Of a stretch of DNA of 64,000 bases, positions 1,456 through 43,918 are shown one piece after another. Position 1 is the first letter of the stretch; each line of letters begins with the position of its first letter. The position numbers and the translations under genes were made by a program. Source of the stretch: Patescibacteria group bacterium (GTDB lineage Bacteria; Patescibacteriota; Patescibacteriia; UBA9934); NCBI GenBank assembly GCA_049296775.1, contig JBAQTB010000001.1:31491-95490 (forward strand), written 5' to 3'. The notes below the pieces were generated by a model. The model was not told where the DNA came from. It saw nothing but the letters and a program-made list of their open reading frames with translations, and did not search any database.

Positions 1456-2548
1456 GTCTATCTACAGAAGTAATCCTGCTGGCCACGCTCTCAGCTACGC
1501 CTAGCATAGCCAACATCATAATCAATGAGCTGCCACCATAACTTACAAAGGGTAAAGTCACGCCAGTCGCCGGCATAATGGCTAAATTCACACCTACATG
1601 AATAAAGGTCTGAACACAATATACAGCAAAGATCCCTATCAAGAGATAAGCCGCAAAAGCATCCCGGGTCACCCTGACATTACTGAGTATACGTACAAAT
1701 AACAAGACAAAAGCGCCAAGCACCACAGCCACGCCCACAAAACCAAGTTCTTCCGCAATCACGGCAAAGATGAAATCTGTCTGACTTTCCGGCAAGAAAC
1801 GGAGTTGACTCTGGCTACCCGCCCCCAAACCCCTACCAATCAAGCCCCCAGCTCCAATAGCAATCTTAGCTTGAGCAACATTATAGCCAGTCGCCAGAGG
1901 ATCAGAGGCAGGATTAATAAACGTACGAATGCGCTCCAACTGATAGTCCCGCAGTTGTCCGGAAGCTAAGATGCCACCAACTAACAAGGCCACGCTCACT
2001 ACCATGACGGCGATCTGTTGCCAGCGAATGCCTGCGAAAAAAATCATAACTATCCAAACACCCACCAGAATAACTGCTCCGCCCAAGTCTGGCTGCCACA
2101 AAATCAAGCCAACCGGCAAAACTAGGCGTAAGCCACTTTGGATTAACTCGCGCCAACCAAAACGCTCCCTAGCGTTATCACTAAAATAACGTGCCAACTC
2201 CAAAGCTAAAGCAAACTTCATCAATTCGACTGGCTGAAAAGAAAAACCGGCCAGAATAAACCAGCCCGTTGTACCGTTTAAGGTTTGACCAAAGAGCAAA
2301 ACAGCCACTAACAGCAAAACTGAAAAGGCGTAGAACAAACGGCTATAAGCCCTGTACAACTGATAGTTAACATTGGATGCCGCCACAAACAAAACTAACC
2401 CAATGCCAAGCGCGATCAATTGCTTGCGCACAAACACGAATTCATCCGCGCCATGAGACAACTCCACCGAAGTAATGGTCGCAATCCCAAAAGCAAACAG
2501 CCCAAAAGCCGCCAAGATCATGAACCAATCAAAACGTCTAACATTCAC
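1442..2548 (-). CDS. SEDS-family peptidoglycan glycosyltransferase (FtsW/RodA/SpoVE).
   Basis: 368 aa polytopic membrane protein with the family motifs GGLIGRGLGAGSQSQLRFLPESQTDFIFAVIAEELGFVG and LPFVSYGGSS. Confidence 0.85.
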   Translation of the reverse strand: MNVRRFDWFMILAAFGLFAFGIATITSVELSHGADEFVFVRKQLIALGIGLVLFVAASNVNYQLYRAYSRLFYAFSVLLLVAVLLFGQTLNGTTGWFILAGFSFQPVELMKFALALELARYFSDNARERFGWRELIQSGLRLVLPVGLILWQPDLGGAVILVGVWIVMIFFAGIRWQQIAVMVVSVALLVGGILASGQLRDYQLERIRTFINPASDPLATGYNVAQAKIAIGAGGLIGRGLGAGSQSQLRFLPESQTDFIFAVIAEELGFVGVAVVLGAFVLLFVRILSNVRVTRDAFAAYLLIGIFAVYCVQTFIHVGVNLAIMPATGVTLPFVSYGGSSLIMMLAMLGVAESVASRITSVDRLESK

Positions 2549-2555
2549 AGCCTAC

Positions 2556-3518
2556 TTATCTTCGCACATCTTGCCCTATTTCGTCATCTGGGTTCATGTA
2601 AACGCTCTGATCAAAATACGGAATGAGTGGCTCGACACTCAAAGTTCCGCTAGGGGGCACCGCACCAAACCACCTCAAATCCAACACGCGAGTCTCCCCA
2701 GCTCCAAACTCTGGTACAGCTACTTTAGTTAAAGACACCACTGTGGCGCCACGCATCAGTTTGACTAAAAATTCCGGAGACCAGTAAGCGTATGCGGTAC
2801 GATTGGTTAAAGTGACCTGCGAATGGCCGAGCAGCTCATCCCCAACCAATAGGTCCTTAGCGTAAGTCGCCTGATCAACGGTGATATTGGATCGTGACTG
2901 TAAAAATTGCTCCGTGTTTGAGATTATATGTTTATCCACACGGTGCCAGACTTGATTGGTCATGATTAGGCGCAGGCTCCCGGGACGCTGTTCGAAACTA
3001 ACATTTATAGCTGCCAGCAGCCTCTGTTCATTGGGATTCAAGAAACCCGTATAAGTCTCAGTCACCCCACCTTCATAGCCAAAAGCGTAATCAAAAGTGA
3101 CGTACCAATCATCATTTGAATTAGTGACCGGTACGAACACGTCATATTTACCAGGCACCACCGACACTGACCTCACGTCCTGAATATCTAAACCCGTTGG
3201 CGCCAAGCGGGTCACTCCAGCGTGACTAGAGTTAAGATTAGCAAAAATTCCGGCCGTTAATCTGGCATCAGAAAAAGATCCTGACACGATATACATGATC
3301 ACGCCGCCAATAAAAACCAGGAGCAACAAAATATCGACACCGGCCAAAAACCACAGCGCACCCAACTCTAACCTAGGGCGAGCATTCACCATGGCAACGT
3401 CCCGACGGTATCGGCTATCAATCGCCTTATACTCGCCGGAAAGCTTGGTTGGTATTTTTTGTGGCTCCCCCTTCACCATAACTATGTACATTTTATCACA
3501 TTCAGGACTGTACTCCAC
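2556..3518 (-). CDS. Hypothetical membrane-anchored protein with one N-terminal TM segment.
   Basis: 320 aa ORF with a TM helix (LGALWFLAGVDILLLLVFIGGVIMYIV) and no recognisable catalytic motif. Divergent from gyrB. Confidence 0.45.
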   Translation of the reverse strand: MEYSPECDKMYIVMVKGEPQKIPTKLSGEYKAIDSRYRRDVAMVNARPRLELGALWFLAGVDILLLLVFIGGVIMYIVSGSFSDARLTAGIFANLNSSHAGVTRLAPTGLDIQDVRSVSVVPGKYDVFVPVTNSNDDWYVTFDYAFGYEGGVTETYTGFLNPNEQRLLAAINVSFEQRPGSLRLIMTNQVWHRVDKHIISNTEQFLQSRSNITVDQATYAKDLLVGDELLGHSQVTLTNRTAYAYWSPEFLVKLMRGATVVSLTKVAVPEFGAGETRVLDLRWFGAVPPSGTLSVEPLIPYFDQSVYMNPDDEIGQDVRR

Positions 3519-3552
3519 CGTGAGGCCATGGTAAGCTGTTTGCGATAATTGA

Positions 3553-5589
<2,037 letters not shown>

Positions 5590-9211: not shown

Positions 9212-9248
9212 ATAAAACATCGCCAACCTGGCGATGTTTTGTATTTTT
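9212..9248 (+). terminator. rplA intrinsic terminator.
   Basis: acatcgcc-aacct-ggcgatgt followed by tttgtattttt. Confidence 0.65.
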
Positions 9249-9315: not shown

Positions 9316-9894
9316 ATGAATGATACCTTTGGACCTGGATCAAATCAGGAAAGACGCCTTATCAACGACCATGATCGGCTAAAAGCCACGGTGGACAGCC
9401 TCAAAACCTTAGGCATGAAAATTGTGCTGACTCAAGGAGTTTACGACTTGATCCATGAAGGTCATGCGGCCTACTTAGAAAAAGCTCGGTCTTTTGGCGA
9501 TATTCTCATAGTCGCCGTGGATTCAGATGCGCTGACAAAAATCCGCAAAGGCCCTAAACGCCCGATTGTCCCGGAGGCGGAACGCGTCAACATGCTATTA
9601 CACTTACGACACGTGGATATCGTCACCGTCAAACAAGCTGAGCACGGCCTGGGTGATGTCATTGAGCTCGTCAAACCCGATGTCATGGTGTTCTCCTCCT
9701 CAACTACCGATGTTCTACCGGAAGAAGCCAAGTCTTATCAACAACATTGTGGTCGCATAGAAATCTTGCCGCCACAAGGCACCACGTCTACCACCGCGAG
9801 AGTTAGAAATTTGACCATTGAGGGTGCTGAGACATTGGCCAAAGAAGTCAGTGAACTAATTACCAAATTCCTCGATCAAATCAAAACGAGCTAA
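9316..9894 (+). CDS. Cytidylyltransferase-like (HxGH) nucleotidyltransferase.
   Basis: 192 aa. VLTQGVYDLIHEGHAAYLEKAR matches the (T/H)xGH nucleotidyltransferase signature of the HldE domain II, TagD and NMNAT superfamily. The substrate cannot be assigned. Confidence 0.65.
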   Translation: MNDTFGPGSNQERRLINDHDRLKATVDSLKTLGMKIVLTQGVYDLIHEGHAAYLEKARSFGDILIVAVDSDALTKIRKGPKRPIVPEAERVNMLLHLRHVDIVTVKQAEHGLGDVIELVKPDVMVFSSSTTDVLPEEAKSYQQHCGRIEILPPQGTTSTTARVRNLTIEGAETLAKEVSELITKFLDQIKTS

Positions 9895-9895
9895 T

Positions 9896-10720
9896 ATGCT
9901 CATCGCCTTTATTCCGGTACTCCACACAGGCTATCTTGAGTTATTCAAACAGCATCCTGAAGAGCTCGGTATCTTGGGCCTCGACGTTATTGCCGATTAC
10001 ACCGCACTCACCCGTGATCTACGTGTCATAGATCCACAAGTACTCAAACAAGCTATTGAAGGCCTACGAATTTTCCCGCGGATACGTGTCTTGTCAAAAG
10101 CAGACTTAGCTACTCTTGGAACCAACTCGACTAACATCATCATGCCTGATGACGATGTTTCACGTGAGCTGTCGAAGAGATATTTTGGCGATAAAGCTAC
10201 TTTTACTCAAGCCGCGATCCGTTACCGTTGGGATAAAACAGCTGTCACCAAGGAAAATACCGTAACTCCAGATCGCACCGTCTCCGGTAGCGCAGTTGAC
10301 CGCGAGCTCATGCAACTAGCTCGGGCAGAAGGTGAAAAGAGTCAGGATTGGTGGCGACAAGTGGGGGCTGCCATCCTCAAGGATGGTCAAGTCTTAGCCC
10401 AGGGACATAATCATCATCTACCTAGCGATTTCCACTTAGGAGTCAATGGCGATCCGCGGTCTAACTTCAACGCCGGCGAACGCATAGACCTCTCAACAGC
10501 CATTCATGCCGAGGCCAGTCTGATTGCCAACGCCGCCAAACTCGGCACACCGCTGAACGGAGCCACCATCTACGTGTCTACTTTTCCCTGCCCTAACTGC
10601 GCTCGCTTAATTGCAGAGGCCGGCATCAGCAAAGTCTATTACCAAAAAGGCTATTCCCTCCTGGACGCCGAAGAGATTTTCAAAAGCTACCAGATTGAAA
10701 TTATCTTAGTGCAAGACTAA
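9896..10720 (+). CDS. dCMP/cytidine deaminase-domain protein with an N-terminal degenerate nucleotidyltransferase-like domain.
   Basis: 274 aa. The C-terminus has the zinc-deaminase motifs AIHAEASLIANAA and STFPCPNCARLIAEAGI (HAE...PCxxC), as in dCMP deaminase/ComEB. The N-terminus has FIPVLHTGYLELF, an H-T-G-Y in place of HxGH. Its start ATG abuts the stop of the upstream gene. Confidence 0.7.
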   Translation: MLIAFIPVLHTGYLELFKQHPEELGILGLDVIADYTALTRDLRVIDPQVLKQAIEGLRIFPRIRVLSKADLATLGTNSTNIIMPDDDVSRELSKRYFGDKATFTQAAIRYRWDKTAVTKENTVTPDRTVSGSAVDRELMQLARAEGEKSQDWWRQVGAAILKDGQVLAQGHNHHLPSDFHLGVNGDPRSNFNAGERIDLSTAIHAEASLIANAAKLGTPLNGATIYVSTFPCPNCARLIAEAGISKVYYQKGYSLLDAEEIFKSYQIEIILVQD

Positions 10721-11166
10721 CCGATACGACTACACAACCCGCGCTCAGCGTCATAATCTGGTGCGTCTGGATCGGATTGAATGATATGCGCGTGCAGATG
10801 AGAAACTGAACCTCCGGTAAAATGTGTATCTCCAAATCTAAGCATGAGAGTACCGCCAGGAATCTGGCGCCGCTCTGTCTCTTCTGCCAGAATGGTCTGT
10901 AGCTCGCCCCAAGCCTGAGCTGACAGCTCAGTCACGTGCTCAATGTGAGTGCTGTGAATTAACAAAATATGGTGCTTGGACGGCTGGTAAGGGTACATGT
11001 TATCCGTGACCGACCAGTGTCCATATGTCCGGATGGGTCGCTTGTGAAAATTCAAAAGCTGCTCAGGGCAAAAAGGACAAACCGCCTGACCCGCAATCTC
11101 CTTAATGACCTGAGCATAAACGCCACGATTGGCGTTATTTTGGTTAACGAGTCCAGCCATACCCAA
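10717..11166 (-). CDS. HIT-family (HINT-like) nucleotide hydrolase.
   Basis: 149 aa with the histidine triad HLHAHII near the C-terminus and an N-terminal CPFC motif as in HINT proteins. Its stop overlaps thyA by 4 nt, and its C-terminus overlaps the convergent deaminase gene. Confidence 0.8.
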   Translation of the reverse strand: MGMAGLVNQNNANRGVYAQVIKEIAGQAVCPFCPEQLLNFHKRPIRTYGHWSVTDNMYPYQPSKHHILLIHSTHIEHVTELSAQAWGELQTILAEETERRQIPGGTLMLRFGDTHFTGGSVSHLHAHIIQSDPDAPDYDAERGLCSRIG

Positions 11167-11168
11167 GA

Positions 11169-12062
11169 CTACACCGGCGTAGGAATTGACATAGCCTCAT
11201 GCGCTACGTAATCGCTAAGCGTGAAATGCTCCGGTCTAAAATCGAAGATATCCATGATGTCTGGCTTGAGAGACATGGTTGGAAAAGGTTTAGGTTCACG
11301 TGCTAGCAGCTCCTCCACCTTGGCATATTGAGATTCGTAAATATGTGCATCAGACAGCGTGTAAACCAACTCTTTAGGCGTATAGCCCATGATTTGAGCC
11401 ACCATCATGGTAAAGGCGGCATACTGAATCATGTTAAAAACTACGCCAACCGGCACATCGCCGCTACGCTGGAAGTGGTGCACGGACAGCTCTTTGGTTT
11501 CTGGATTGGCGATGATGTGCAAATAACCATGACAAGGCGCCACAACCACCTTGCGTGGCGGTAAACCAGAATGCTGAATGGTGTACTGAGGAATCCAAGG
11601 AGAAATGATATGAGTCCGCAAATTAGGTCGCTCTTTGAGCTGCTTAATCACGTGCTCAATTTGGTTAAACGGCGTACCTTCAGCGGTAGGGAAAGCCGCC
11701 CAAGCTGGACCATATGAACCGGGCCCTAGATCGCCTTCTGGCAAGCCAAAAATGTCACAACGCTCTTTAGTTACCCACTTCTTCCACCACCCGCAACCAT
11801 ACGCCTGCATCTGCTCCAGAGTTTGCGCGCCGTGCAAAAAGGCAAAGTGCTCACCTAACGCACCTAACATAAATCTCCCAGACAGATCACGTTCTGTAAT
11901 CATGGGGAAACCGTTCTTAAACGCAAAACGCATCTGATGCCCCAAAACCATCTTGGACTTCTCCCCCTGAATGGGATGCATCTCAGTCCCCTCAGTCATG
12001 ATACGTGTCAATAAATCATGGTACTGACGATCTGGAGTGCGCTCGGCGTAAGGTTTCATCAT
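11169..12062 (-). CDS. thyA: Thymidylate synthase (ThyA family), a divergent form.
   Basis: 297 aa. It has LGHQMRF, DLGPGSYGPAW, the catalytic APCH cysteine, FQRSGD, VFNMIQY (Asn conserved, so dUMP specificity) and DAHIYESQ. Relative to E. coli ThyA it carries a short insertion (SPWIPQYTIQHSGLPPRKVVV) before the catalytic Cys. Confidence 0.8.
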   Translation of the reverse strand: MMKPYAERTPDRQYHDLLTRIMTEGTEMHPIQGEKSKMVLGHQMRFAFKNGFPMITERDLSGRFMLGALGEHFAFLHGAQTLEQMQAYGCGWWKKWVTKERCDIFGLPEGDLGPGSYGPAWAAFPTAEGTPFNQIEHVIKQLKERPNLRTHIISPWIPQYTIQHSGLPPRKVVVAPCHGYLHIIANPETKELSVHHFQRSGDVPVGVVFNMIQYAAFTMMVAQIMGYTPKELVYTLSDAHIYESQYAKVEELLAREPKPFPTMSLKPDIMDIFDFRPEHFTLSDYVAHEAMSIPTPV

Positions 12063-12559
12063 ACTAAGTAATGAAGAAGGAGCGTGTGTGAATTAAGTTG
12101 TTTCACCGACTGAAAGCGTAGTGCTACCCTAGCAAACCCTTGCGCTAACGGCACTCCCCCGCCAAACAAAATCGGCTCAAGTGTCAAGAAAACTTCTGTC
12201 ACCAAGCCCGCCGCCAAAAATTGACCGTAAATAGACGCTCCCCCAGCCACCGCCAAGTCTGTCACGCCTTCAGACTCTAACTTAGCAACCAACTCATGCG
12301 GTTCTAAGTTACTAAATTCGACCCCTGGCATCGGCTTTTCTTTACTAGGATCTTTAGTTAAAACAAGTAAACGCCGGCCCTTTAAAGCGCGGTTAAAGGT
12401 CGAAAAAGTCTTCCTGCCCATCACTACCACGCCAATCTCTTTGGTTTTATCAATAAAAAATTGCTTGTCTTCCTTACTGGTCCAATCCATGGAGGATTGA
12501 TCAACATGTTCAGCGATTTTTCCGTCCGCTGAAATAGCCGCAATCAAAGTAACTTTCAT
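12059..12559 (-). CDS. folA: Dihydrofolate reductase.
   Basis: The six-frame ORF runs to 12685, but the DHFR fold begins at MKVTLIAAISADGKIA (ATG at 12559). It has VVVMGRKTF and LLVLT, and its stop overlaps the thyA start (ATGA), the classic thyA-folA pairing. Confidence 0.75.
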   Translation of the reverse strand: MKVTLIAAISADGKIAEHVDQSSMDWTSKEDKQFFIDKTKEIGVVVMGRKTFSTFNRALKGRRLLVLTKDPSKEKPMPGVEFSNLEPHELVAKLESEGVTDLAVAGGASIYGQFLAAGLVTEVFLTLEPILFGGGVPLAQGFARVALRFQSVKQLNSHTLLLHYLV

Positions 12560-12762
12560 AATGACTGGGCTAAGAAATGCAAAGCTACTAAGAAAAAGTG
12601 AGGCGTGACGGGCAAGCATGGAGCCCATCACACCCCACCATTCCTCGAATCCGCCCACACGATTGCGATACCTCGACTGTGCCATTGCCCACGCTCATGG
12701 TCAACGTCAGAGTGTGGATAGCCAAGATGAATTTTATCAGATTAAAGATTACAGTGGCGAAT

Positions 12763-13188
12763 ATGCAAATTTCATTTCGTCGGCTATCTCCCGACACTCT
12801 AGTACCCGAGTATAAAACTCCTGGTGCCTGCGCCTTTGACGTTGCTGTGATCGAAGAAGTGACCCTAGAGCCCGGTGAGCGTCAACTCCTCTCAACCGGT
12901 TTGGTAGTCACTGTACCCAAAGGCTATGCGTTACTCCTCATGTCGCGCTCCAGTAATGCTAAAAAAGGCTTGCGCCTCTCAAATAGTGTTGGCTTGATTG
13001 ATCAAGATTACTGTGGCCCAACCGATGAACTGAAATGCTCAATCCATAATTTTGGACAAACAGCCTACACGATCACTAAAGGCGAACGGCTCGCCCAAGC
13101 CCTCATTGTGCCCATTGTAATGGGTGATTTTATAGAAACACATGAGGTCAAGGCGGGAGACAGGGGCGGTTTTGGCACAACTGGCTAG
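12763..13188 (+). CDS. dut: dUTP diphosphatase.
   Basis: dUTPase motifs AGACAFDVAV, LLSTGLVV, RSSNAKKGL, GLIDQDYCG and the C-terminal RGGFGTTG. The ORF opens at 12598, but MQISFRRLSPDT at 12763 matches the family N-terminus. Confidence 0.8.
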   Translation: MQISFRRLSPDTLVPEYKTPGACAFDVAVIEEVTLEPGERQLLSTGLVVTVPKGYALLLMSRSSNAKKGLRLSNSVGLIDQDYCGPTDELKCSIHNFGQTAYTITKGERLAQALIVPIVMGDFIETHEVKAGDRGGFGTTG

Positions 13189-13212: not shown

Positions 13213-14070
13213 ATGGCTTCACTTATCAGCATCGGACAAATCCTTGATCAAAGCTTGGAACACGGTAAAAAATATTCTAAAGAACTCTTAGCGATTCTGC
13301 TCTGGATAGTCATTGCGGCTATTCCCTCAATTATTAGTCGACTCATTGCTCCAAGTGACGCCACAGACAGATTGAATACCGGTGACTGGATCTCGTTTGG
13401 TTTATCCTTGAGCGGGTTAATTATTACCGGCGTTGTGAGCGTGTGGGCCTATGCGGTCTTTATCTTGGCCGTAGATAGTCAGATGGCTAAGAGAAAAACA
13501 GATTTAAAAGCGTTGTACCAACACGGCTGGAAGATCTTCTGGAAATACCTAGCCCTGACCATCTCATTAGTAGGTGTAGTAATTGCCGCTGCGCTACCAG
13601 CGATCCTAGGAGTAGTGATAACTATTCTGGGTAGCACCGACAATGCTCCAGGCTTCCTGGCGGCCATTGGAGTACCGCTGCTCTTAATTGGATGTCCGAT
13701 CTCCATTTTCCTCATCATGAAATACGTAGTGCTCTTTGCTTTTGCGCCGTATCTTATGGTGCTAGAGAAAAAGTCACTCACGAATTCGTTTAAAGAGAGT
13801 GCTAAATTGGTCAAAGGACGCTGGTTAGCCGTGGCTATGAGGTTTATAGTGCCTAAGCTCGTCTTTTTCTTGGTCATGTACCTCATCACCGCTGTGGTGA
13901 CTATGGCTCTCAGCCTGCTCCTCGGCACAACGGCGACCATGTCTGGATTACTGACCTTGATTGTTTACGCTTTTAGTTTGCTGATCTCAGTCTTCCTGTC
14001 TATTGTCACCACGCCCCTCATCATTACCACCGACTACTTGCTGTATGACAGTCTCAAAAAAACCCGCTAA
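13213..14070 (+). CDS. Hypothetical polytopic membrane protein (tandem paralogue A).
   Basis: 285 aa with at least 6 TM helices. FKESAKLVKGRWLAVAMRFIV aligns with FKTSYALVKGQFWAILFRLVM in the next gene. Confidence 0.5.
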   Translation: MASLISIGQILDQSLEHGKKYSKELLAILLWIVIAAIPSIISRLIAPSDATDRLNTGDWISFGLSLSGLIITGVVSVWAYAVFILAVDSQMAKRKTDLKALYQHGWKIFWKYLALTISLVGVVIAAALPAILGVVITILGSTDNAPGFLAAIGVPLLLIGCPISIFLIMKYVVLFAFAPYLMVLEKKSLTNSFKESAKLVKGRWLAVAMRFIVPKLVFFLVMYLITAVVTMALSLLLGTTATMSGLLTLIVYAFSLLISVFLSIVTTPLIITTDYLLYDSLKKTR

Positions 14071-14857
14071 GCATCCGGTGGTCAGCACAGCTAAGTCACA
14101 GAGCGCCCAAAAATTACCGGGCGTTCTTTTCTTGATTAAAGACGCGACCGTTGTCACTTTCAAACTCAAAACTGTCATCTTGGGCTATGTGGCCTGGCTC
14201 CTAATACCCATTGGCCTCTTGCTAATTGCCCAAAATATCCCGGCACCGTATACAGAGTATTTGATTACCTTTGCCAATACCTTAACCCTCATCTTGAGCC
14301 TCTGGGTGACAGCCGCCATCACGCTATACGTAGCCGTAATCGTGAGCCATGACGCTGATGCCGACATTAACTTCACAGCGCTTGGCAACAGAGCTTGGGA
14401 AAAAGTCCTTAACCTGTTTGTCATTCAAGTACTCACGGTTATCGCTGTGGTCTGCGGCTTAATTCTCTTTGTCATTCCGGGCATAGTGCTCTGGGTCTGG
14501 ACGATCTTTGCGGTACAGGAGTCAATTCTAAGCGCCGCGTCTATCAAAGAAAATTTCAAAACTAGCTACGCCTTAGTGAAGGGTCAGTTTTGGGCGATCC
14601 TGTTCAGACTAGTCATGGCTAACCTCATCTTTACCTGTGTCATAGGCTTAGCGCTCGGTACGCTCATGAATCTGGGCCATTATGACCCGGGATTACTCAG
14701 TCTAGATGAATTCGCAGCTTGGCCAATCTGGTTAAGCATCGGTTTTGGCCTGATTATTTTACCCGTGTTGCCTGTAGCCCTCATCTTCCAACTCCTCCTT
14801 TACTTTGCGGTCAAAAAGTCGTACCCTGAGGTGGAAGTTAATCGCTCACACCCCTAG
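14045..14857 (+). CDS. Hypothetical polytopic membrane protein (tandem paralogue B).
   Basis: A paralogue of 13213..14070. The start is ambiguous: ATG 14045 overlaps the upstream gene by 26 nt, and GTG at about 14078 is an alternative. Confidence 0.45.
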   Translation: MTVSKKPAKHPVVSTAKSQSAQKLPGVLFLIKDATVVTFKLKTVILGYVAWLLIPIGLLLIAQNIPAPYTEYLITFANTLTLILSLWVTAAITLYVAVIVSHDADADINFTALGNRAWEKVLNLFVIQVLTVIAVVCGLILFVIPGIVLWVWTIFAVQESILSAASIKENFKTSYALVKGQFWAILFRLVMANLIFTCVIGLALGTLMNLGHYDPGLLSLDEFAAWPIWLSIGFGLIILPVLPVALIFQLLLYFAVKKSYPEVEVNRSHP

Positions 14858-17500: not shown

Positions 17501-18265
17501 CTAATCATTTTTCACCAGTCGCAGCACGCCCGGTTGGCGCGGCTGCGTAACTGGCAGTGGCGGAATATTCCGCTCCGGAATGTCGTCGTCTTCTTCGAGC
17601 TTCCCCAGACATGAGTCTGGAAAATACTCGATTCTTTTACCGCTCGCTGACAGCGAGCGCTTGAACTTAGGCCGTTGCTCGAGTTCCAAACGTACGTACT
17701 CTTGGGCGGCAATGTAAGCCGTCCAGATCAGGTTGAAAAACTCGACCATCACCCCCAATTGATACGTGGAGTGCATGGCCCGCTTTTCAAATTTATCGCG
17801 GAAGTCACCGCGCGCCAGCCTGTAAGAGACCTCGTATTCCGGCCTCGCAAGATGCTCCTGCTGCCAGGCGTGTAACTTTTCCGGCTCAAGAAGCCGGATC
17901 AGCCTCTCCGCGCGATACGCGATTACTTCTGGCAGATCCATGATCGGCCCAGAGCAAAAGGGCAGAAAGCGCTCCTTGATCCAGAGACACATCTCACCCC
18001 AGAATTCCGGAGAGAAATCGGCGTCATCGTCAACCGCGCGCACGTAATTCTGGATCACTCCAGCCAAACGCGGTAGATGAGCACGCCGCGTGCCTCCCCC
18101 TTTTGGGAGCTGTACCAGGATACCTGGCGACACGAAGCATCTGTGAACGCAGTCAAGGATGTCATCCCGCCTGCACTGAGGTGCAGTGTACGGCATGTCG
18201 GAATGAACCAAAAACAGATTGAATCGTTGAGTCAAAGAACACCTCCAGTTAGCTGAAGCTAGCAA
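17501..18265 (-). CDS. Hypothetical protein.
   Basis: 254 aa, soluble, rich in Cys and Trp, with no recognisable motifs. Divergent from the three-gene block to its right. Confidence 0.45.
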   Translation of the reverse strand: MLASANWRCSLTQRFNLFLVHSDMPYTAPQCRRDDILDCVHRCFVSPGILVQLPKGGGTRRAHLPRLAGVIQNYVRAVDDDADFSPEFWGEMCLWIKERFLPFCSGPIMDLPEVIAYRAERLIRLLEPEKLHAWQQEHLARPEYEVSYRLARGDFRDKFEKRAMHSTYQLGVMVEFFNLIWTAYIAAQEYVRLELEQRPKFKRSLSASGKRIEYFPDSCLGKLEEDDDIPERNIPPLPVTQPRQPGVLRLVKND

Positions 18266-18333
18266 AAAAATCGACTTTTGTCAATCTGTCCACCCTAAGG
18301 TGCGGTATACTGTGATGAATAATTGCAGGCTCT

Positions 18334-19611
18334 ATGGTGGAACAAGCGGCGCGTAATCGAGCTGAAGTGGGTCGAAAATCCCCAGAAACTCAGCCAAAGG
18401 CTCGTGAAGTGTTAAAATTCAATGGATCCAAGCCAACTCTAGAAGCCCACCCTGTAACCCCGGAAACACCCGATTACGGCTTAGACCAGGTCACTTACAC
18501 AGCTGGCCAAGAGGTCAAGCTTATGGATGAAGCCGGTCGAACGACAGACTACACCGTAGTCTCCGCCAATCCGGATGATGGCGACGTGTTTCTACAAAAA
18601 ACTGGGGATACCACCGTCGCCCCCTCTCTGGAAATCAGACATAGGCTAGAGTTAGCACTAGAAGAAGCTGTACATCCCATCGCCGCTCAAGCCGACCAAT
18701 TGTGGCCCAAACTTTTGGCTAAATATACAAACTTGTCAGGATTCCAAGGGAACGATGAGAATTTCATCAGCAAGGTCACCGGCGGCAAAGGTAAGATTCT
18801 ATATCTGACCGGTTTAGAAGTTCTCAAAGACCATCCCAACTTTCAGAGTACTAATGATCAAGATCTACTCGAACGTGTCTTAGACAAAAACCTCAAACAG
18901 TACGCCGTTGAACACGCTAAATCAAAGGTTGAAGATAGGCATCCAGTCATTACTGCGGAACATCAAATCAGCAACTACGCCCTAAACTGCAAAATTCAAG
19001 CTGACTTAAGATGCACAGATGAAGAGCTGAAAGCGTCAGAAAAAATGCAAGAGTTAATTGAAGTAGAGATCACAACTGCCCTATCCAATGATCCACCGCT
19101 GCTCGAAATAGATGAGAATGACGACTGGGATAAAACCGAAGCAAAGCCTAATGCTCCAGAAAAATATCGGCCAATCGATGAACCTTATGGAGTTACATTA
19201 AGCCGAGCCAGAGAAACTTGGGCAGAAATGGGTCAACAGGCAGAAACTTATCAGAGACTAGTGCAAACGGAAGACCTTAGCTTAGATAAGCTGCAGGATA
19301 TTTATAGAGCTTTGAGCAAGTCGCTAGCAGAGGCCAAGGCTAGCTCTAGGCTCTTAAATGCTAAGCGCTTAGAATTGAGGGTGGACAAAGATGGCGCTCA
19401 GATCTCACTAGCCGAGCTCGATAAATGGGAGCAAATAGTCGCCAATCTCAAAAATCAAAACTTGGGAGTTGCAGATAAAACAATTAAAACACCCAAACTG
19501 GTAGGTCCGGTTGGATTCAATATATCGACACCGACGTCCGCGCCAGAGATAAAACCACCAAGTAAGGTCGCTAAGGTTCTAGATAAAATCAGTGAATGGT
19601 TCCGGATCTAA
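18334..19611 (+). CDS. Hypothetical hydrophilic protein.
   Basis: 425 aa with no signal peptide or TM segment, acidic and helix-prone. No family recognised. Confidence 0.5.
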   Translation: MVEQAARNRAEVGRKSPETQPKAREVLKFNGSKPTLEAHPVTPETPDYGLDQVTYTAGQEVKLMDEAGRTTDYTVVSANPDDGDVFLQKTGDTTVAPSLEIRHRLELALEEAVHPIAAQADQLWPKLLAKYTNLSGFQGNDENFISKVTGGKGKILYLTGLEVLKDHPNFQSTNDQDLLERVLDKNLKQYAVEHAKSKVEDRHPVITAEHQISNYALNCKIQADLRCTDEELKASEKMQELIEVEITTALSNDPPLLEIDENDDWDKTEAKPNAPEKYRPIDEPYGVTLSRARETWAEMGQQAETYQRLVQTEDLSLDKLQDIYRALSKSLAEAKASSRLLNAKRLELRVDKDGAQISLAELDKWEQIVANLKNQNLGVADKTIKTPKLVGPVGFNISTPTSAPEIKPPSKVAKVLDKISEWFRI

Positions 19612-19646
19612 AGTGTCCCCACGCTAGAGAAATATACGCTAAAAAA

Positions 19647-19656
19647 TTGCTATAAT
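19647..19656 (+). promoter_or_regulatory. Extended -10 promoter element upstream of 19685.
   Basis: TTGCTATAAT (TG-n-TATAAT), 28 nt upstream of the ATG. Confidence 0.35.
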
Positions 19657-19684
19657 TAGAGCAATCTTATTCTTTGATTTTGCT

Positions 19685-21211
19685 ATGAGTCATTACTATT
19701 ACATTCGTGGTGAAGGCGGCCCACGGCCAAGCGGCGATATATTTCCTAAACCAAAAAAATCTAAAATTGATGAGGCGGACCACGCCAATATATTGGCACT
19801 CACCGAACAGGCGGCCTTTGAAGCTGAAGAAGCGATGCCAAAAAGACGGAGCAAGGCCGTGGAATTGACAGCTCTGCAAAATCCTGAAGAACTCAACAAA
19901 TTAGCTAATCCTGAGCCAGCTTCTTTTAATGAGGCCAATCCTCTAGACCGGAATTTACCGGAAAAAATCAACAACACTCTTGATGTTGCTGAGATTCCTC
20001 AACGTGAACTCATCAAGTCTGCTGAAAAAGCCGAGAAATCGACCGATAGCTGGTTCACCAGTCTGGCTAAACATTCACAAAGCATAGCTAGCGGCGCTGG
20101 CACGTTATTGAGCAAGGCTTTTGCTGGTAGAAGCAATCCTGAATTTGCACCGCGTAGCATAATGAAAGACGCCGCCGAAGGTGCTAAAGAAGTCTTTGTA
20201 GATGCCCCTCTAGACATGCTCGTCGGCACCAAGGGCCCAAGTCTAGCCAGACTCCTCGGGGAAAATCTATCCGTGTACGATCTAGCAAGAGCTAGCAAGG
20301 CCGCCGTGATTGATGTAGCTAGTGGCGTCAGTAAGTACGCCAAAGAAGCGGTACGCGGCGATAAATATCACAGATTACCAGAAGAAGACTTTACGCCTGA
20401 AGGCCAGACCATCCCGGCAGCCGTTGATTTCATGAAGGATTTGAAAGAAGCGTTGGGTGGCGGTGAAACTAAAGGTATGCTAAGCGAAATTGCAGACAGA
20501 AAAGAGGATGCTGTGACCATGACCAAATATATCTTAGGTGGCGGCTTCTTCAAGGAAGTTTATACTGGCGTGAGTGACAAGATTACCGGAAAGCAGCGCA
20601 AAGCAGTTGAGGCGTTGTTTCAAGATGCAAATATCAATGGAGACAAGGCCAAACTCCGATCAAGATTAGACACCTCACCCCATGGCAAAAAATCTGCCCA
20701 TAATCCTGAACTAAGAGCCGTAGAGATCGCCATGAACAGATTAACTGAATTTGATAACGCGAATATCGACAGCCGTATTCACGCCGGACAGATCAGTGCG
20801 GATACGTTGCGCTACACTAGCGAAACGCTCAAGACCGCCAGTGAAGACGAGATCTTCTGGGGCAGAATGGTTAACGACGCGTTGCAGGTTGGTTCGCAAA
20901 GACTGGAGACTGCAGCTTCAGAAACTGAGGATATCGCCAATATCGCCGCTCAAGCTGAAGCTACAAAACAAGAAGCCATTTTAAGATCAAGAGAGAAATT
21001 CATTAAACTCATAGATGCAGCCGAACGCCAATATCAACGCAACAACGAAGTGCTAACAAAAAATAAACTAACCAAAGGTACCAGGGAAGCCATGGCACAG
21101 AACATGGATAAACTAGACGACCTCATGAATAAGTACGCTGCAGCCGTGACCGCTTTAGATGACCTATCCAAGTTTAAACCTACTGCTAAACGTTTAGCTA
21201 AGGCCGCCTAA
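19685..21211 (+). CDS. Hypothetical hydrophilic, helix-rich protein.
   Basis: 508 aa, rich in Lys, Glu and Ala, with no TM segment or signal peptide and no recognisable motifs. Confidence 0.5.
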   Translation: MSHYYYIRGEGGPRPSGDIFPKPKKSKIDEADHANILALTEQAAFEAEEAMPKRRSKAVELTALQNPEELNKLANPEPASFNEANPLDRNLPEKINNTLDVAEIPQRELIKSAEKAEKSTDSWFTSLAKHSQSIASGAGTLLSKAFAGRSNPEFAPRSIMKDAAEGAKEVFVDAPLDMLVGTKGPSLARLLGENLSVYDLARASKAAVIDVASGVSKYAKEAVRGDKYHRLPEEDFTPEGQTIPAAVDFMKDLKEALGGGETKGMLSEIADRKEDAVTMTKYILGGGFFKEVYTGVSDKITGKQRKAVEALFQDANINGDKAKLRSRLDTSPHGKKSAHNPELRAVEIAMNRLTEFDNANIDSRIHAGQISADTLRYTSETLKTASEDEIFWGRMVNDALQVGSQRLETAASETEDIANIAAQAEATKQEAILRSREKFIKLIDAAERQYQRNNEVLTKNKLTKGTREAMAQNMDKLDDLMNKYAAAVTALDDLSKFKPTAKRLAKAA

Positions 21212-23673: not shown

Positions 23674-24867
23674 TTATTCCTTGGGCTCTTCAATGATGAT
23701 CTTAATGTGATCTTGCAAGGTAGGCACGCGCTTCAGCCAGAAAGGCGTAAAAGACACGGACACGTCTTGAATGGCCTCTGAAGCCCGGAGTAAGGTCAAG
23801 ACCTCATGAGGTGCCCTACCCACAAATCTGTCTTTATTTAAGGTTGGAGCATCTTCAGCCAAAATCGAAAGTCCGTCTAGATATACAGTAATCACAGCTT
23901 CCCCATTGGCAGCATCAAGCGCGCTAACTTCCGTACGCATGGTTTGATCATTCACTAAAGACACACGGAAACCGTCTGGAATCTGTTCAGACAAAAGCTT
24001 TTCAGCATAATGCTTAACTTCCAACCTAGGGTAATACACGGCAGTGATCTTCTGCTTTAAGGTCAAAGTAAATGAACCCACTTCAGCACCAACGGCGGAG
24101 TCAGTCGTCTCCGCAACGGTTACGATCTCATAAGATTCGCCGTCTAACTTGGCCCTATCTACACCGGCACTTAATGTCTGTTGGGCCTCAGATAAAATTT
24201 CATCTGACAAGGTCTGAACAGCTGTATCAATATCCGCCTCAGTTAAAACCCGAACATATTGCACGCCGCCAGTCATGGCCGCGACACTCACGCCATAAAT
24301 CTGAGTTTGCTGTGTGGCATTCAAACCAGGAATAGTAAATTTAGAGGCACCAATTTCGCCACCCTTACCGGCGACATCTGCCTTTACAAATACCTCCACC
24401 TGACCATTAGCTGGCACGGTGGCAAGATTCTGCAAACGGTACAAAATCCCTTCTTGAGAAATCAAACGCGTCGTAGCCACGAGCGGTTGATCTTTAGCTG
24501 ATTCGTTAATCAAAGTCACGTAACCACTCGCCTTATTTTCTACCGGACTGGCGCCTTCTGACGGCAAAGTAAAGACGCGACTCTTGGAAAGTTCCGTAGC
24601 AGTCACCAGACCGGCCACCTGGCCTTCAGCAATTGGCTCCGCAATCACATCAATATCCGCTTCAACGTCGATAACCTTAGGATCGGCGACGATTTTAATT
24701 GTAGCTCTAGAGACAGACAGGTACAGGACGCAGAGCAGCAGTAAAAAAGTAATTACCACGAAAGCCACGGCAATATGTTGGTACATACGCAGTGAACGTG
24801 ACAATGGCTTCCTCCCTGCCCCGGCGCGCTCAACACGCTTTGGTGCATTTTTAACCATAGATATCAA
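23674..24867 (-). CDS. Hypothetical membrane-anchored protein (N-terminal TM, large extracytoplasmic domain).
   Basis: 397 aa with a TTG start and one TM helix (IAVAFVVITFLLLLCVLYLSV). The rest is beta-rich and Thr/Val-rich. It lies between dnaE and thrS. Confidence 0.5.
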   Translation of the reverse strand: MISMVKNAPKRVERAGAGRKPLSRSLRMYQHIAVAFVVITFLLLLCVLYLSVSRATIKIVADPKVIDVEADIDVIAEPIAEGQVAGLVTATELSKSRVFTLPSEGASPVENKASGYVTLINESAKDQPLVATTRLISQEGILYRLQNLATVPANGQVEVFVKADVAGKGGEIGASKFTIPGLNATQQTQIYGVSVAAMTGGVQYVRVLTEADIDTAVQTLSDEILSEAQQTLSAGVDRAKLDGESYEIVTVAETTDSAVGAEVGSFTLTLKQKITAVYYPRLEVKHYAEKLLSEQIPDGFRVSLVNDQTMRTEVSALDAANGEAVITVYLDGLSILAEDAPTLNKDRFVGRAPHEVLTLLRASEAIQDVSVSFTPFWLKRVPTLQDHIKIIIEEPKE

Positions 24868-28609: not shown

Positions 28610-29467
28610 TTGGAGCTGGCCATGAGCAAGCCGCCCCCGTTTAATCTCTACGCTCCAACCTCCTGCAACCTCGATCCGTCCCTGGCTCGTCATTTGCAGG
28701 TAGCACGCGCCTCCCAAGTTGCCAGCCAAGCCTTTGACTGGCAAGCCTTGATCATCAAACTACAGTGTAGCGTGCGACCAGTGCTAAAAACAGCCAGCTG
28801 GCTGTTGCTAGCAAGCATCATCCTCACCGCTGAAGTCACGCTGTCAACGGCGCTCACAGCCGGTTCAATCTACGGACTAGTCGCCTTCATGTGCCTGCTG
28901 GCTGGTTGGGATGAGCATCCGAAGACACTAGTCTTCAAGCAGGCCAGTCAAAGCATGTTGGCGACCATCGTACAACCCCTCGCGTCTGGAATACAGCTCT
29001 TCAACATTGCCACCTACAAGTTCAAAGCGCCGCCCGTGATGGTGACGACACTCTCCGGTACCTCGAGATTGAAGACTGACTCCATTTGGACCGATGAAGT
29101 CTGCCAGGACCCACGGTTTGGTGAATACCTACTACTCCTTGAGTTCATGCAGGCCTGGAGTGATTTGGCGAGTACGCTTAATCGCCTCATCATGAGCGCG
29201 GAGGATCAAGTACTACCCGGCGTGGTCGCTAAGTTTATCCTTGACCATCGGGCGACACTCGAACTGAAAGAGTTGCAGTTGAGAAGTTTCATCAAACACT
29301 GCACTGCGCTCGCTACGCTCGGTGAACCTGGCGCCGTGGCACCAGAGACTCATCAGCCGCTCTTTGGTCAGGCCGAGGCCGTGCACAAACACCTGGCCAG
29401 CCTCAGGCGCATCAACTCTGAAGCTCAGAGTTTACTCGCCGACATGGTGCGAAATGGCAAATACTGA
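28610..29467 (+). CDS. Hypothetical protein in a GC-rich island.
   Basis: 285 aa with a central hydrophobic stretch and no recognisable motifs. Local GC is about 58 % against a background near 49 %. Confidence 0.45.
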   Translation: MELAMSKPPPFNLYAPTSCNLDPSLARHLQVARASQVASQAFDWQALIIKLQCSVRPVLKTASWLLLASIILTAEVTLSTALTAGSIYGLVAFMCLLAGWDEHPKTLVFKQASQSMLATIVQPLASGIQLFNIATYKFKAPPVMVTTLSGTSRLKTDSIWTDEVCQDPRFGEYLLLLEFMQAWSDLASTLNRLIMSAEDQVLPGVVAKFILDHRATLELKELQLRSFIKHCTALATLGEPGAVAPETHQPLFGQAEAVHKHLASLRRINSEAQSLLADMVRNGKY

Positions 29468-30163: not shown

Positions 30164-31189
30164 TTACAGCCAGGTCGAAATCTTGCCGGCGCGCTTAAGA
30201 GCATTATTCAGATCAAGTCTAGCCGTATGCACGGCCTGACCAATCGTCCCCGTCTTTGGATACAGTAACCCACGGGAGGAGTTAACTGTGATCCCGAACC
30301 CATGAATGTCGGCCGCTAAAACCGCGCTGTCAGAGCCACTACCTTGCACTCCGTAACCAGGCACCAAGAACCAGGTCTGCGGCATCAACTGACGCGCGAT
30401 GACCGACTCTTCGGAAGTGGCGCCGACCACTGCCCCCAGGTTAGACCAGCCACAAGCCCCTAGGGCGGACTGACCCAACTTCTCAATCTCGATTGCGACG
30501 TGTTGCCAATGCGGGCGCGTGCCATGGTCCAAAATCCATTCAAACGCACTCGGTAACGGTTTGCCGCCCCTGTGCAGATCAGTCCTGTTCAGATCCTTCA
30601 GCACCGCCTCTCGATCGAGGACAGGCAACTGCTCAAACGCAGAAACCGGCTTGAAGCTAGTCCGGCACACCGCGAAAGCCGCCTTGTTGTTGGCCTGCAA
30701 TTGCGCCATAAACGGCTCAAGACAAGATTGTCCAATGGACGGGTTGATCGTCAAGGCGTCGTACACAGACTGAGCTCCGAGGTACGCCTGAGCGTAGGCC
30801 TGGGCGCTATCGCCGCCGTCACTACACTTAGCATCCAAGATCACAATCAGCCCTTGCTTCCTGGCGTAATGCGCAACATCTTCAAGTGCCGCAAAACCCC
30901 ACGGGCCGTGCTTGCCCCAAAAGGCCCACTGGAGCTTGCACCAAACCACCTCATCACCCGCCTCATCGATGGCGCGTTTACAGAAGTCACGACAGATCTT
31001 AGCCAGACCCTCGCGATCCTCAAACGGGTAGTCATCGTCAGGTACGATCTTGACCCCGTAATATTTGAAGAACTCAGGCGCTGCCTGCGCAATCATCGCC
31101 GTCTGAGGATCCAGACCCAAGCATAAAATACTTTGGCGCGCTGCAACCCCCATGCACGATCGGTCAGTAAACTTAGCATCGCTCTCCAT
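30164..31189 (-). CDS. pyrF: Orotidine-5'-phosphate decarboxylase, type 2 family (orphan).
   Basis: 341 aa. The type-2 ODCase motifs ILCLGLDP, CKLQWAFW (KxQxAFF), DAKCSD (the DxKxxD catalytic triad, with Arg replaced by Cys), AVVGATS and FLVPGYGVQGSG. GC is about 57 %. It has its own hairpin terminator at 30112..30150 on the minus strand. Confidence 0.65.
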   Translation of the reverse strand: MESDAKFTDRSCMGVAARQSILCLGLDPQTAMIAQAAPEFFKYYGVKIVPDDDYPFEDREGLAKICRDFCKRAIDEAGDEVVWCKLQWAFWGKHGPWGFAALEDVAHYARKQGLIVILDAKCSDGGDSAQAYAQAYLGAQSVYDALTINPSIGQSCLEPFMAQLQANNKAAFAVCRTSFKPVSAFEQLPVLDREAVLKDLNRTDLHRGGKPLPSAFEWILDHGTRPHWQHVAIEIEKLGQSALGACGWSNLGAVVGATSEESVIARQLMPQTWFLVPGYGVQGSGSDSAVLAADIHGFGITVNSSRGLLYPKTGTIGQAVHTARLDLNNALKRAGKISTWL

Positions 31190-42997: not shown

Positions 42998-43000
42998 TTG

Positions 43001-43030
43001 AGAAAAAACGAGCCTCGGGCTCGTTTTTTC
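43001..43030. terminator. Bidirectional-looking terminator after clpC.
   Basis: aaaaaa-cgagcc-tcg-ggctcg-tttttt. Confidence 0.7.
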
Positions 43031-43048
43031 GTGGTACAATTTAGGCGT

Positions 43049-43918
43049 ATGGTAGTTAACTCGGGTGCCACCACACTCAGACTAAGTGACACCAAAGCTA
43101 GACTTGCAGTTGAGAAAAATATCGCCAGACGCGGGCGCGATTTTGAGCAACCAAGATCTAACAATCTCGTCACGCCCGAGCTACCACAAACTCCCCCACC
43201 GCCAACAGGACTAGACCGCACTGAGACCTTCCAGAGAGCTGACCGCCAACGCCGTGTGCAAAACCAGATTGGTCAAAGCGCTGGCATGGACTTAGTCAGG
43301 CGTACTCCAGCCAGTGAAACACAAGAACCTATCGATAAAATTCAGGCCGATTACGCCCAGAAGGAAGCCTCTTTGCTAGCCAGAAACCAAGCCGGACAAG
43401 ATAAACGCTCTGCCCCAGCCAAACGCTCTGAACGTAACCAGATCAAGTCCAAGGGCCTAAATGAGGCCATGGAGGAATTACAAAAAAAGGCGCAAAAAGA
43501 GATCCAATCATTCTTCAGCAATAGCACCGGCGCCGTGGCTGAAGTGGTTGGCACACCGGGTGAAGACGGTGGCTTTTTTGAACTGGCCAGCATGGCCCAA
43601 AATTCCGGACAAGCTGTCAGAACCATCCTCTCACCCGCCCCACCCGAGGCTAAGGATGCCACCAGTATCGCTGCCCTTAAATCTCAGTTCCAAGAATCAA
43701 TCCTAGACGGTATCATTCCGCGTTTTAATCTGCACACCATGAGCGGTATCGAGGGTATGCTCAAAGCGATTGCTCAAATGTTCTTTGTGGGACTAGTTAT
43801 GCTCGTGATTTCCATCGTAGTTCTCATCCAGATCAGTATCTTTGATACAATTTATCAATTAGGCACCAATCCATTTAAACTAATCTTCAACCTCGGGCTC
43901 TCAAAGCTTGGCATGTAA
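43049..43918 (+). CDS. Hypothetical protein with a C-terminal TM anchor, possibly translated from a leaderless mRNA.
   Basis: The ORF opens at TTG 42998 inside the clpC terminator. The realistic start is ATG 43049, 8 nt after an extended -10 (TGGTACAAT at 43032..43040). The C-terminus has a TM helix (MFFVGLVMLVISIVVLIQI). Confidence 0.5.
   Translation: MVVNSGATTLRLSDTKARLAVEKNIARRGRDFEQPRSNNLVTPELPQTPPPPTGLDRTETFQRADRQRRVQNQIGQSAGMDLVRRTPASETQEPIDKIQADYAQKEASLLARNQAGQDKRSAPAKRSERNQIKSKGLNEAMEELQKKAQKEIQSFFSNSTGAVAEVVGTPGEDGGFFELASMAQNSGQAVRTILSPAPPEAKDATSIAALKSQFQESILDGIIPRFNLHTMSGIEGMLKAIAQMFFVGLVMLVISIVVLIQISIFDTIYQLGTNPFKLIFNLGLSKLGM

Follow-up and report, generated by a model that had tools for sequence, protein, structure and literature searches.

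The thymidylate block and its standard enzymes

Six genes between positions 9316 and 13188 of a 64-kb stretch of a Patescibacteria (candidate phyla radiation, CPR) metagenome-assembled genome, hereafter the window, form a block for the synthesis of deoxythymidine monophosphate (dTMP). A nucleotidyltransferase gene (NT) and a gene for a two-domain deaminase protein, which we call FUS, lie on the plus strand; the operon folA-thyA-hit converges upon them from the minus strand, and dut diverges from folA on the plus strand. Family models, coordinates and reading of the junctions bear out the identities, places and orientations that a preliminary description had given to all six genes. The features are as follows.

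9212..9242, plus strand: terminator-like hairpin, a 14-bp stem followed by a T run, 3' of rplA
9316..9894, plus strand: NT, 192 aa, predicted nucleotidyltransferase of the HldC/HldE-domain-II/TagD class with intact catalytic motifs
9896..10291, plus strand: residues 1-132 of FUS, its N-domain: cytidylyltransferase fold, degenerate, with HxGY instead of HxGH
10292..10720, plus strand: C-domain of FUS, a zinc deaminase of the deoxycytidine monophosphate (dCMP) type, with HAE (204-206) and PCPNC (231-235)
10717..11160 (ATG start) or 11166 (TTG start), minus strand: HIT, 147 aa from the ATG, last gene of folA-thyA-hit
11169..12062, minus strand: ThyA, 297 aa (PF00303, TIGR03284)
12059..12559, minus strand: dihydrofolate reductase (DHFR, folA), 166 aa, N-terminus MKVTL, homologues likewise 166 aa
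12560..12762, no strand assigned: divergent intergenic region between folA and dut, with one promoter-like site on the minus strand
12763..13188, plus strand: Dut (dUTPase), 141 aa, N-terminus MQISF, homologues likewise 141 aa

The hairpin sets NT-FUS apart from the genes for ribosomal proteins. As described beforehand, the stop codon of NT abuts the start of FUS, with a single base between the TAA at 9892-9894 and the ATG at 9896. Within folA-thyA-hit, the ATGA overlaps that had been claimed throughout are real for folA and thyA, which share 12059-12062, and absent between thyA and hit, where 2 nt remain if hit starts at the TTG and 8 nt if it starts with the ATG at 11160; the ATG is favored as the start of hit because the homologues are 147 aa long. 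FUS and HIT converge so closely that their stop codons overlap at 10717-10720, and the two transcription units must therefore overlap at their 3' ends. Rfam models identified no family in 12560-12762 and no riboswitch anywhere in the window, including this island.

ThyA exceeds the cut-offs of both PF00303 (220 bits against 24.3) and the thymidylate synthase model TIGR03284 (175.3 bits against 108.35), at 34% identity to the Escherichia coli thymidylate synthase (TS). When 75 relatives, down to 39% identity, were aligned with the E. coli enzyme (whose numbering is used here) and with solved TSs, every catalytic and specificity residue proved to be present in the window protein and either invariant or conserved in 72-75 of the 75 (E58, W80, W83, Y94, C146, H147, Q165, R166, S167, D169, N177, H207, and Y209). 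The catalytic Cys146 and the Asn177 specific for deoxyuridine monophosphate (dUMP), whose retention had already been remarked, are among the invariant positions. Two departures noticed in the window protein also hold across the family: WDEW is WKKW in the window and W[K/S/D][R/K]W across the clade, and the segment from W133 to C146 spans 19-21 residues, compared with 12 in E. coli, amounting to an insert of 7-9 residues before the Cys. Furthermore, only two of the four arginines that bind the phosphate of dUMP, R126 and R166, are kept. The window protein has Ile (its residue 31) for R21 and Thr for R127. The position of R21 is occupied by Ile in 63/75 sequences and by Arg in two only, while that of R127 is Thr in 73/75 and Arg in none. 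These losses had seemed to us to point strongly to a substrate whose phosphate is modified, an idea that we have downgraded: an active TS of the Vibrio parahaemolyticus VAAP clade naturally has Gly at R127', and mutagenesis cited in the same report indicates that the position is non-essential (PMC6005164). Loss of two of the four arginines therefore makes the deviation notable, without proving that the substrate differs. The only two island ThyAs that keep R21 (L061 and L078) are paired with the most divergent HIT proteins of the set (39 and 55 bits), which with n=2 may be chance.

The same divergence, namely low identity to E. coli TS, the insert, WKKW and the two missing phosphate arginines, together with retention of Asn177, as would be expected of a dUMP hydroxymethylase, could be read to mean that this ThyA homologue is such a hydroxymethylase, or another pyrimidine-modifying enzyme, and that the island makes a modified DNA base. 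We regard this as very improbable. A hydroxymethylase does not oxidize folate, whereas in many relatives the DHFR gene either shares bases with thyA, as here, or forms one gene with it; E58, W80, W83, Y94, and H147 are invariant; the TIGR03284 cut-off is passed; and no kinase, glycosyltransferase or other hypermodification gene lies nearby. The DHFR itself satisfies its family models, PF01872 (77.6 bits; cut-off 24.1) and PF00186 (59 bits; cut-off 25), and falls short of the type-3 DHFR equivalog (40 bits; cut-off 168). In at least 11 related loci DHFR and ThyA form a single open reading frame (ORF) of ~470 aa with DHFR at the N-terminus, as listed here.

L009-L014, L020, L085 (5956-7380), L090, L101, L102, L123: DHFR-ThyA fusion loci

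Because DHFR is fused to ThyA in relatives and coupled to it by the ATGA overlap in the window, the only reading that sits easily with the pair is true thymidylate synthesis that produces dihydrofolate, and the assignment of ThyA as a genuine thymidylate synthase that would make dTMP is well supported, in agreement with the earlier judgment. Dut, in turn, passes NF001862 (109.4 bits; cut-off 103).

The deaminase fusion and its companions

FUS is a protein of 274 aa (9896-10720), in which an N-terminal domain invisible to Pfam precedes the zinc dCMP deaminase; an identical protein has been recorded from a Patescibacteria metagenome-assembled genome. The identity of the C-terminal part, proposed earlier, is upheld by a match to PF00383 at 70 bits over residues 135-250, by invariance of the zinc-site residues H204, E206, P231, C232, and C235 in the HAE and PCPNC motifs, and by a predicted fold for which dCMP deaminases, and not RibD, TadA or CDA, are the nearest match. 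The ComEB equivalog TIGR02571 is not reached (58.6 bits; cut-off 219). In dCMP deaminases the allosteric effector-site motif, which responds to dCTP and dTTP, is G(Y/W)N(A/G) (PMC12088426); in the FUS family it is altered to [S23/A22/G19][H47/Y22/F8/W4]N[R31/H18/K18] (residue letters with their counts), and a clade-specific GDPRSNF insert in the deaminase domain is invariant.

Two other identities were considered for this protein. FUS could be an anti-phage dCTP deaminase, with which it shares the deaminase core, and it scores 82 bits on NF041025 and 94 bits on the PADLOC dCTPase model; alternatively, the deaminase and the putative DHFR, which scores higher on RibD_C than on DHFR_1, could together be a disguised RibD, with NT acting as a FAD synthetase. 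We find either hardly credible. The defense match is limited to residues 194-264 and is far under the cut-off of 400, FUS lacks the kinase-like N-domain of the defense enzyme, and the block, which is universal and lies beside core genes, has a housekeeping context. The riboflavin reading (RibD/RibL) is contradicted by scores (on TIGR00326, 21.1 bits for FUS and 20.7 bits for DHFR, against a cut-off of 156) and by the fusion of the reductase to ThyA in relatives. Searches with PADLOC and PHROGs returned no defense or phage-specific assignment, and no defense-system, riboflavin or hypermodification signature was found for the block. The preliminary description had allowed that the NT product and the N-domain of FUS might turn out to be a known split housekeeping enzyme; the RibD scores, matches to phosphopantetheine adenylyltransferase (PPAT) and FAD-synthetase models that are far under their cut-offs, and the restriction of the N-domain to this one fusion all speak against this.

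The N-domain family is absent from Pfam. Residues 1-132 matched no Pfam family even at E<=10 and nothing in a profile search of the PDB, and IMG/VR contained no relative of FUS. The suggestion that this domain is nucleotidyltransferase-like nonetheless held in two ways: its predicted fold is that of a cytidylyltransferase, and hhalign aligned it with the neighboring NT family, weakly (E 0.011, probability 4%) yet in the correct HxGH register, with VLHTGY set onto LIHEGH and R40-D-x-R43 onto the RKGPxRP segment. A BFVD search gave no more than weak cytidylyltransferase matches. Nine residues are invariant (P7, H10, G12, Y13, R40, D41, R43, R111, and R127). The HxGH signature has become H10-x-G12-Y13, with Tyr in place of the second His in 76/81 sequences, and of the C-terminal RTxGISTT-type motif only R111-W112 remain at that position. 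Among 1.84 billion representative sequences, a profile search recovered the N-domain in 563 clusters, essentially all of them fusions to this deaminase of ~275-300 aa; the short matches were fragments. As nine residues are invariant, the domain is not a relic, and in our reading it is a catalytically degenerate but constrained, probably nucleotide-binding, NT paralogue.

The upstream NT, by comparison, looks like a working enzyme. It matches PF01467 at 56.4 bits (cut-off 21) and the rfaE_dom_II model TIGR02199 at 106.2 bits (E 1e-30), the latter below the cut-off of 181.5; indeed, it falls under every NCBIfam equivalog cut-off. Its best PDB match is HldC (5x9q, E 2.7e-17), and its HxGH motif (IHEGH, residues 47-50) and C-terminal TTSTTARVRNL show conservation of at least 95% among 79 relatives. 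As for heptose-pathway neighbors, none of the loci inspected has a gene for GmhA, GmhB or a kinase within 6 kb on either side.

The product of hit is marginal to its Pfam families, with 22.2 bits on PF01230 (cut-off 21.5) and 24.2 bits on PF11969 (cut-off 24). The window protein has HLHAH, CPFC, and His74; in 71 relatives there is no variation at C30-P-F-C33, H74, H123 or H125, while His (31), Gln (21), and Asn (18) share the last position of the triad. The family profile matched PDB entries weakly, with a best E-value of 4e-4 for a Hint-like protein, 0.0085 for aprataxin, 0.05 for Fhit, and 0.38 for Ap4A phosphorylase. Judged from these comparisons, the family is a distinct clade within the HIT superfamily. 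A second HIT-like ORF, weakly related to the window HIT (25-70 bits), occurs in L003 (4738-5283) and in L019, L064, L068, L074, L133, and L136, often immediately 5' of NT or on the far side of ThyA; the window lacks such an ORF.

Conservation of the block across the phylum

Whether this neighborhood recurs in relatives had been posed as a check by the preliminary description, and it does recur. Among 80 species-level genomes anchored on FUS (identity 69% down to 40%), 79 have NT directly upstream of FUS, 76 have a convergent HIT downstream, and 75 have ThyA; the complete set of four occurs in 72/80, and most misses are contig ends. Metagenomic loci anchored on HIT give the same picture, with ThyA directly upstream in 52/54 by script and in 54/54 on inspection (L086 and L090 also have ThyA), FUS convergent in 52/54, and NT present in 42/46; the block was likewise found at both NT-anchored loci. 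Around a four-gene core that stays, the position or strand of DHFR and dut varies, and rplA is often missing. The core also persists in rearranged surroundings: NT-FUS stands behind GNAT-HAD-Sua5, with thyA-hit displaced, in L039 and L055, and rplKA is on the other side of the block in L073. In some loci further genes join the block, namely a dCTP deaminase (Dcd) directly upstream of NT in L085, and SHMT with FolD in L003 and L084. The block is thereby shown to be a phylum-wide Patescibacteria dTMP island, made of standard enzymes and three conserved partners.

One further arrangement is of interest. A single protein of 469 aa (P0164), found in 2-3 samples (contigs in ERZ1426824 and ERZ1426813), comprises NT, the N-domain and the deaminase in one chain. 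Conserved linkage, together with this one fusion of NT and FUS, argues that NT and HIT belong to the dTMP pathway. Beside P0164 are a 315-aa DHFR_1 protein and then ThyA, and no separate HIT gene was called there; the 315-aa protein might be a HIT-DHFR fusion. In L085, a CYTH-domain protein and the Dcd (2460-3994) directly precede NT on its own strand, placing both deaminase routes to dUMP in one island.

The alternative is that NT and HIT are unrelated housekeeping neighbors kept in place by synteny, and that the N-domain is a relic or purely regulatory; NT might then be an adenylyltransferase for a cofactor, or a sugar- or alcohol-phosphate nucleotidyltransferase serving the envelope, with HIT doing general house-cleaning of nucleotides. 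This has some appeal, given that the whole region near rplK is syntenic, that tight packing, as in the overlapping FUS and HIT stops, leaves few neutral breakpoints, and that the best matches of NT are enzymes acting on heptose-1-phosphate and glycerol-3-phosphate. It nevertheless seems unlikely to us, though it is the rival that we take most seriously. DHFR, dut, and rplA move or vanish around a core that does not, and that core is found with different flanks; a fusion protein of NT and FUS exists; HIT directly follows ThyA in every informative HIT-anchored locus; and the nine invariant residues of the N-domain are not those of a relic. If the neighbors were unrelated after all, then the finding would reduce to a well-annotated dTMP operon.

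Elsewhere the window carries CPR housekeeping genes, including those for MiaA, ThrRS, DnaE, PheST, Ddl, and ClpB. Two adjacent, overlapping genes for multi-pass membrane proteins (285 and 284 aa; 13213-14857, plus strand) stand between dut and gatB; their homologues, which have weak matches to DUF7544 and DUF7847, are kept downstream of the island in the closest relatives. On the minus strand, 30164-31189 encodes a 341-aa protein of the orotidine monophosphate decarboxylase/HUMPS family (PF00215, E 2e-16); to our knowledge, this lineage is usually said to be without de novo pyrimidine synthesis. Sizeable ORFs without a Pfam match (254-508 aa) are found among 17501-21211, 23674-24867, 28610-29467, 42998-43918, and 52717-57702, and the window also has an ORF of 1661 aa. 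In the flanks of L004-L083, L1 is not beside L11 in many genomes.

Candidate roles and comparison with known systems

The reading that we prefer, and hold with about even confidence, is of an ordinary dTMP cycle furnished with lineage-specific accessories. Dut and the zinc dCMP-type deaminase are placed to supply dUMP, which ThyA would methylate while DHFR regenerates tetrahydrofolate, so that the end product would be ordinary dTMP and no modified base. The N-domain of FUS would have arisen by duplication of the upstream NT gene. The second His of its HxGH signature is gone, as is the C-terminal motif that clamps the nucleoside triphosphate (NTP), while four arginines are still invariant; by analogy, the domain may serve as a nucleotide-binding and/or docking module, most likely paired with NT. 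Cytidylyltransferases dimerize, and ECT has a tandem arrangement of an active and a second domain. Such a module could tie NT to the deaminase, and so replace control by the altered effector site. For their part, NT may write, and HIT erase, a nucleoside monophosphate (NMP)-phosphoanhydride on a phosphate ester related to pyrimidine nucleotides, and turnover of this bond would adjust the pool on which the deaminase and ThyA draw. Of the variant deoxynucleotide salvage or modification route envisaged in the preliminary description, then, the association of the partners stands, through conservation and the NT-FUS fusion; the route itself goes beyond what these data show, and nothing points to a modified base.

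Several observations weigh against our preferred reading. The closest characterized relatives of NT take sugar phosphates, not nucleotides, as acceptors, and HIT fits no characterized branch of its superfamily well, whether Hint, Fhit, GalT, aprataxin, DcpS or Ap4A phosphorylase. One NT-FUS fusion protein is thin evidence. In 46 loci the island has rplK (L11) upstream, followed by rplA (L1) in only 17, and part of the conservation of the block may therefore reflect general synteny in compact genomes. Lastly, the two operons converge, and co-transcription is therefore impossible.

A bolder scheme would give a job to every unexplained part. According to this, NT attaches an NMP at the 5'-phosphate of dCMP or dUMP (or uses dCTP as donor), and so forms a deoxypyrimidine with a 5'-5' pyrophosphate-linked nucleotide handle; the N-domain holds on to this handle during conversion of C to U by the deaminase, the tagged dU becomes the substrate that ThyA methylates, and HIT cuts off the handle, which frees dTMP. 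The reaction catalyzed throughout the NT family is condensation of an NTP with a phosphate monoester, with FMN, NMN (nicotinamide mononucleotide), and phosphopantetheine as precedents. H10, R40, R43, and R111 of the N-domain occupy phosphate-binding positions of cytidylyltransferases, and P0164 unites NT, the N-domain and the deaminase. Moreover, all 75 ThyA relatives combine the lack of two dUMP-phosphate arginines with an insert by the R126/R127 loop, HIT weakly resembles two enzymes that cleave 5'-5' linkages, DcpS and aprataxin, and the only two ThyAs with Arg21 adjoin the most divergent HITs. Set against these points, the scheme is without precedent in nucleotide metabolism and costly for a minimal genome; Dut of the same island yields free dUMP, and loss of Arg127, a non-essential position, is natural in the active Vibrio TS, which uses free dUMP (PMC6005164). 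We consider it improbable, while noting that, if true, it would give core deoxynucleotide metabolism its first carrier-tagged route. A further idea is that NT and a phosphorylase-type HIT might together stand in for thymidylate kinase.

Few pathways are better understood, or more often targeted by drugs, than thymidylate synthesis. We found no description of this block in the literature. In a very large radiation of minimal-genome bacteria, dTMP synthesis is accompanied by three conserved proteins which have been given no textbook role, and by a ThyA without two residues long treated as invariant. Establishing the tasks of NT, HIT and the NT-like domain would close a gap in our understanding of DNA-precursor balance in these epibionts, assign a function to a domain family that Pfam lacks, and could reveal new regulation of dCMP deaminase or channeling of nucleotides.

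In its core, the island resembles the canonical dTMP gene sets (dCMP deaminase, ThyA, FolA, and Dut) of many bacteria and of T4-like phages (cd, td, frd), with the same four families, the same catalytic residues, and translational coupling of folA to thyA; it differs in a set of Patescibacteria-specific additions, namely the predicted active NT, the degenerate NT-fold domain on the deaminase, and the HIT gene after thyA. The bifunctional DHFR-TS architecture is best known from protists and plants, and some relatives of the island likewise have a single ORF with DHFR at the N-terminus, whereas the window has separate, overlapping genes, and the DHFR part is of a RibD_C-like type. With HldC, HldE domain II, TagD, CCT, and ECT (PF01467), NT shares HxGH, the (R)xVD interface motif and the C-terminal TT.T motif; its island, by contrast, has no heptose or teichoic-acid genes nearby. 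The island ThyA has in common with the TS of VAAP-clade Vibrio parahaemolyticus, which retains activity, a natural replacement of the phosphate-binding Arg127' (PMC6005164), and departs from it in also losing Arg21 and in having the insert before Cys146 and WKKW for WDEW. Relative to DCTD-type dCMP deaminases, such as T4 Cd (1vq2) and those of cyanophage S-TIM5 (4p9c) and Streptococcus mutans (2hvv), FUS is set apart by its 130-residue N-terminal cytidylyltransferase-fold domain, the x[H/Y]N[R/H/K] effector motif, and the GDPRSNF insert. A parallel is offered by vertebrate CDADC1, which like FUS joins a DCTD-like deaminase to an extra inactive domain, and in which canonical allosteric control has apparently been replaced (PMC12088426); in CDADC1, however, the extra domain is a dead deaminase domain rather than a nucleotidyltransferase fold, and the substrate is dCTP.

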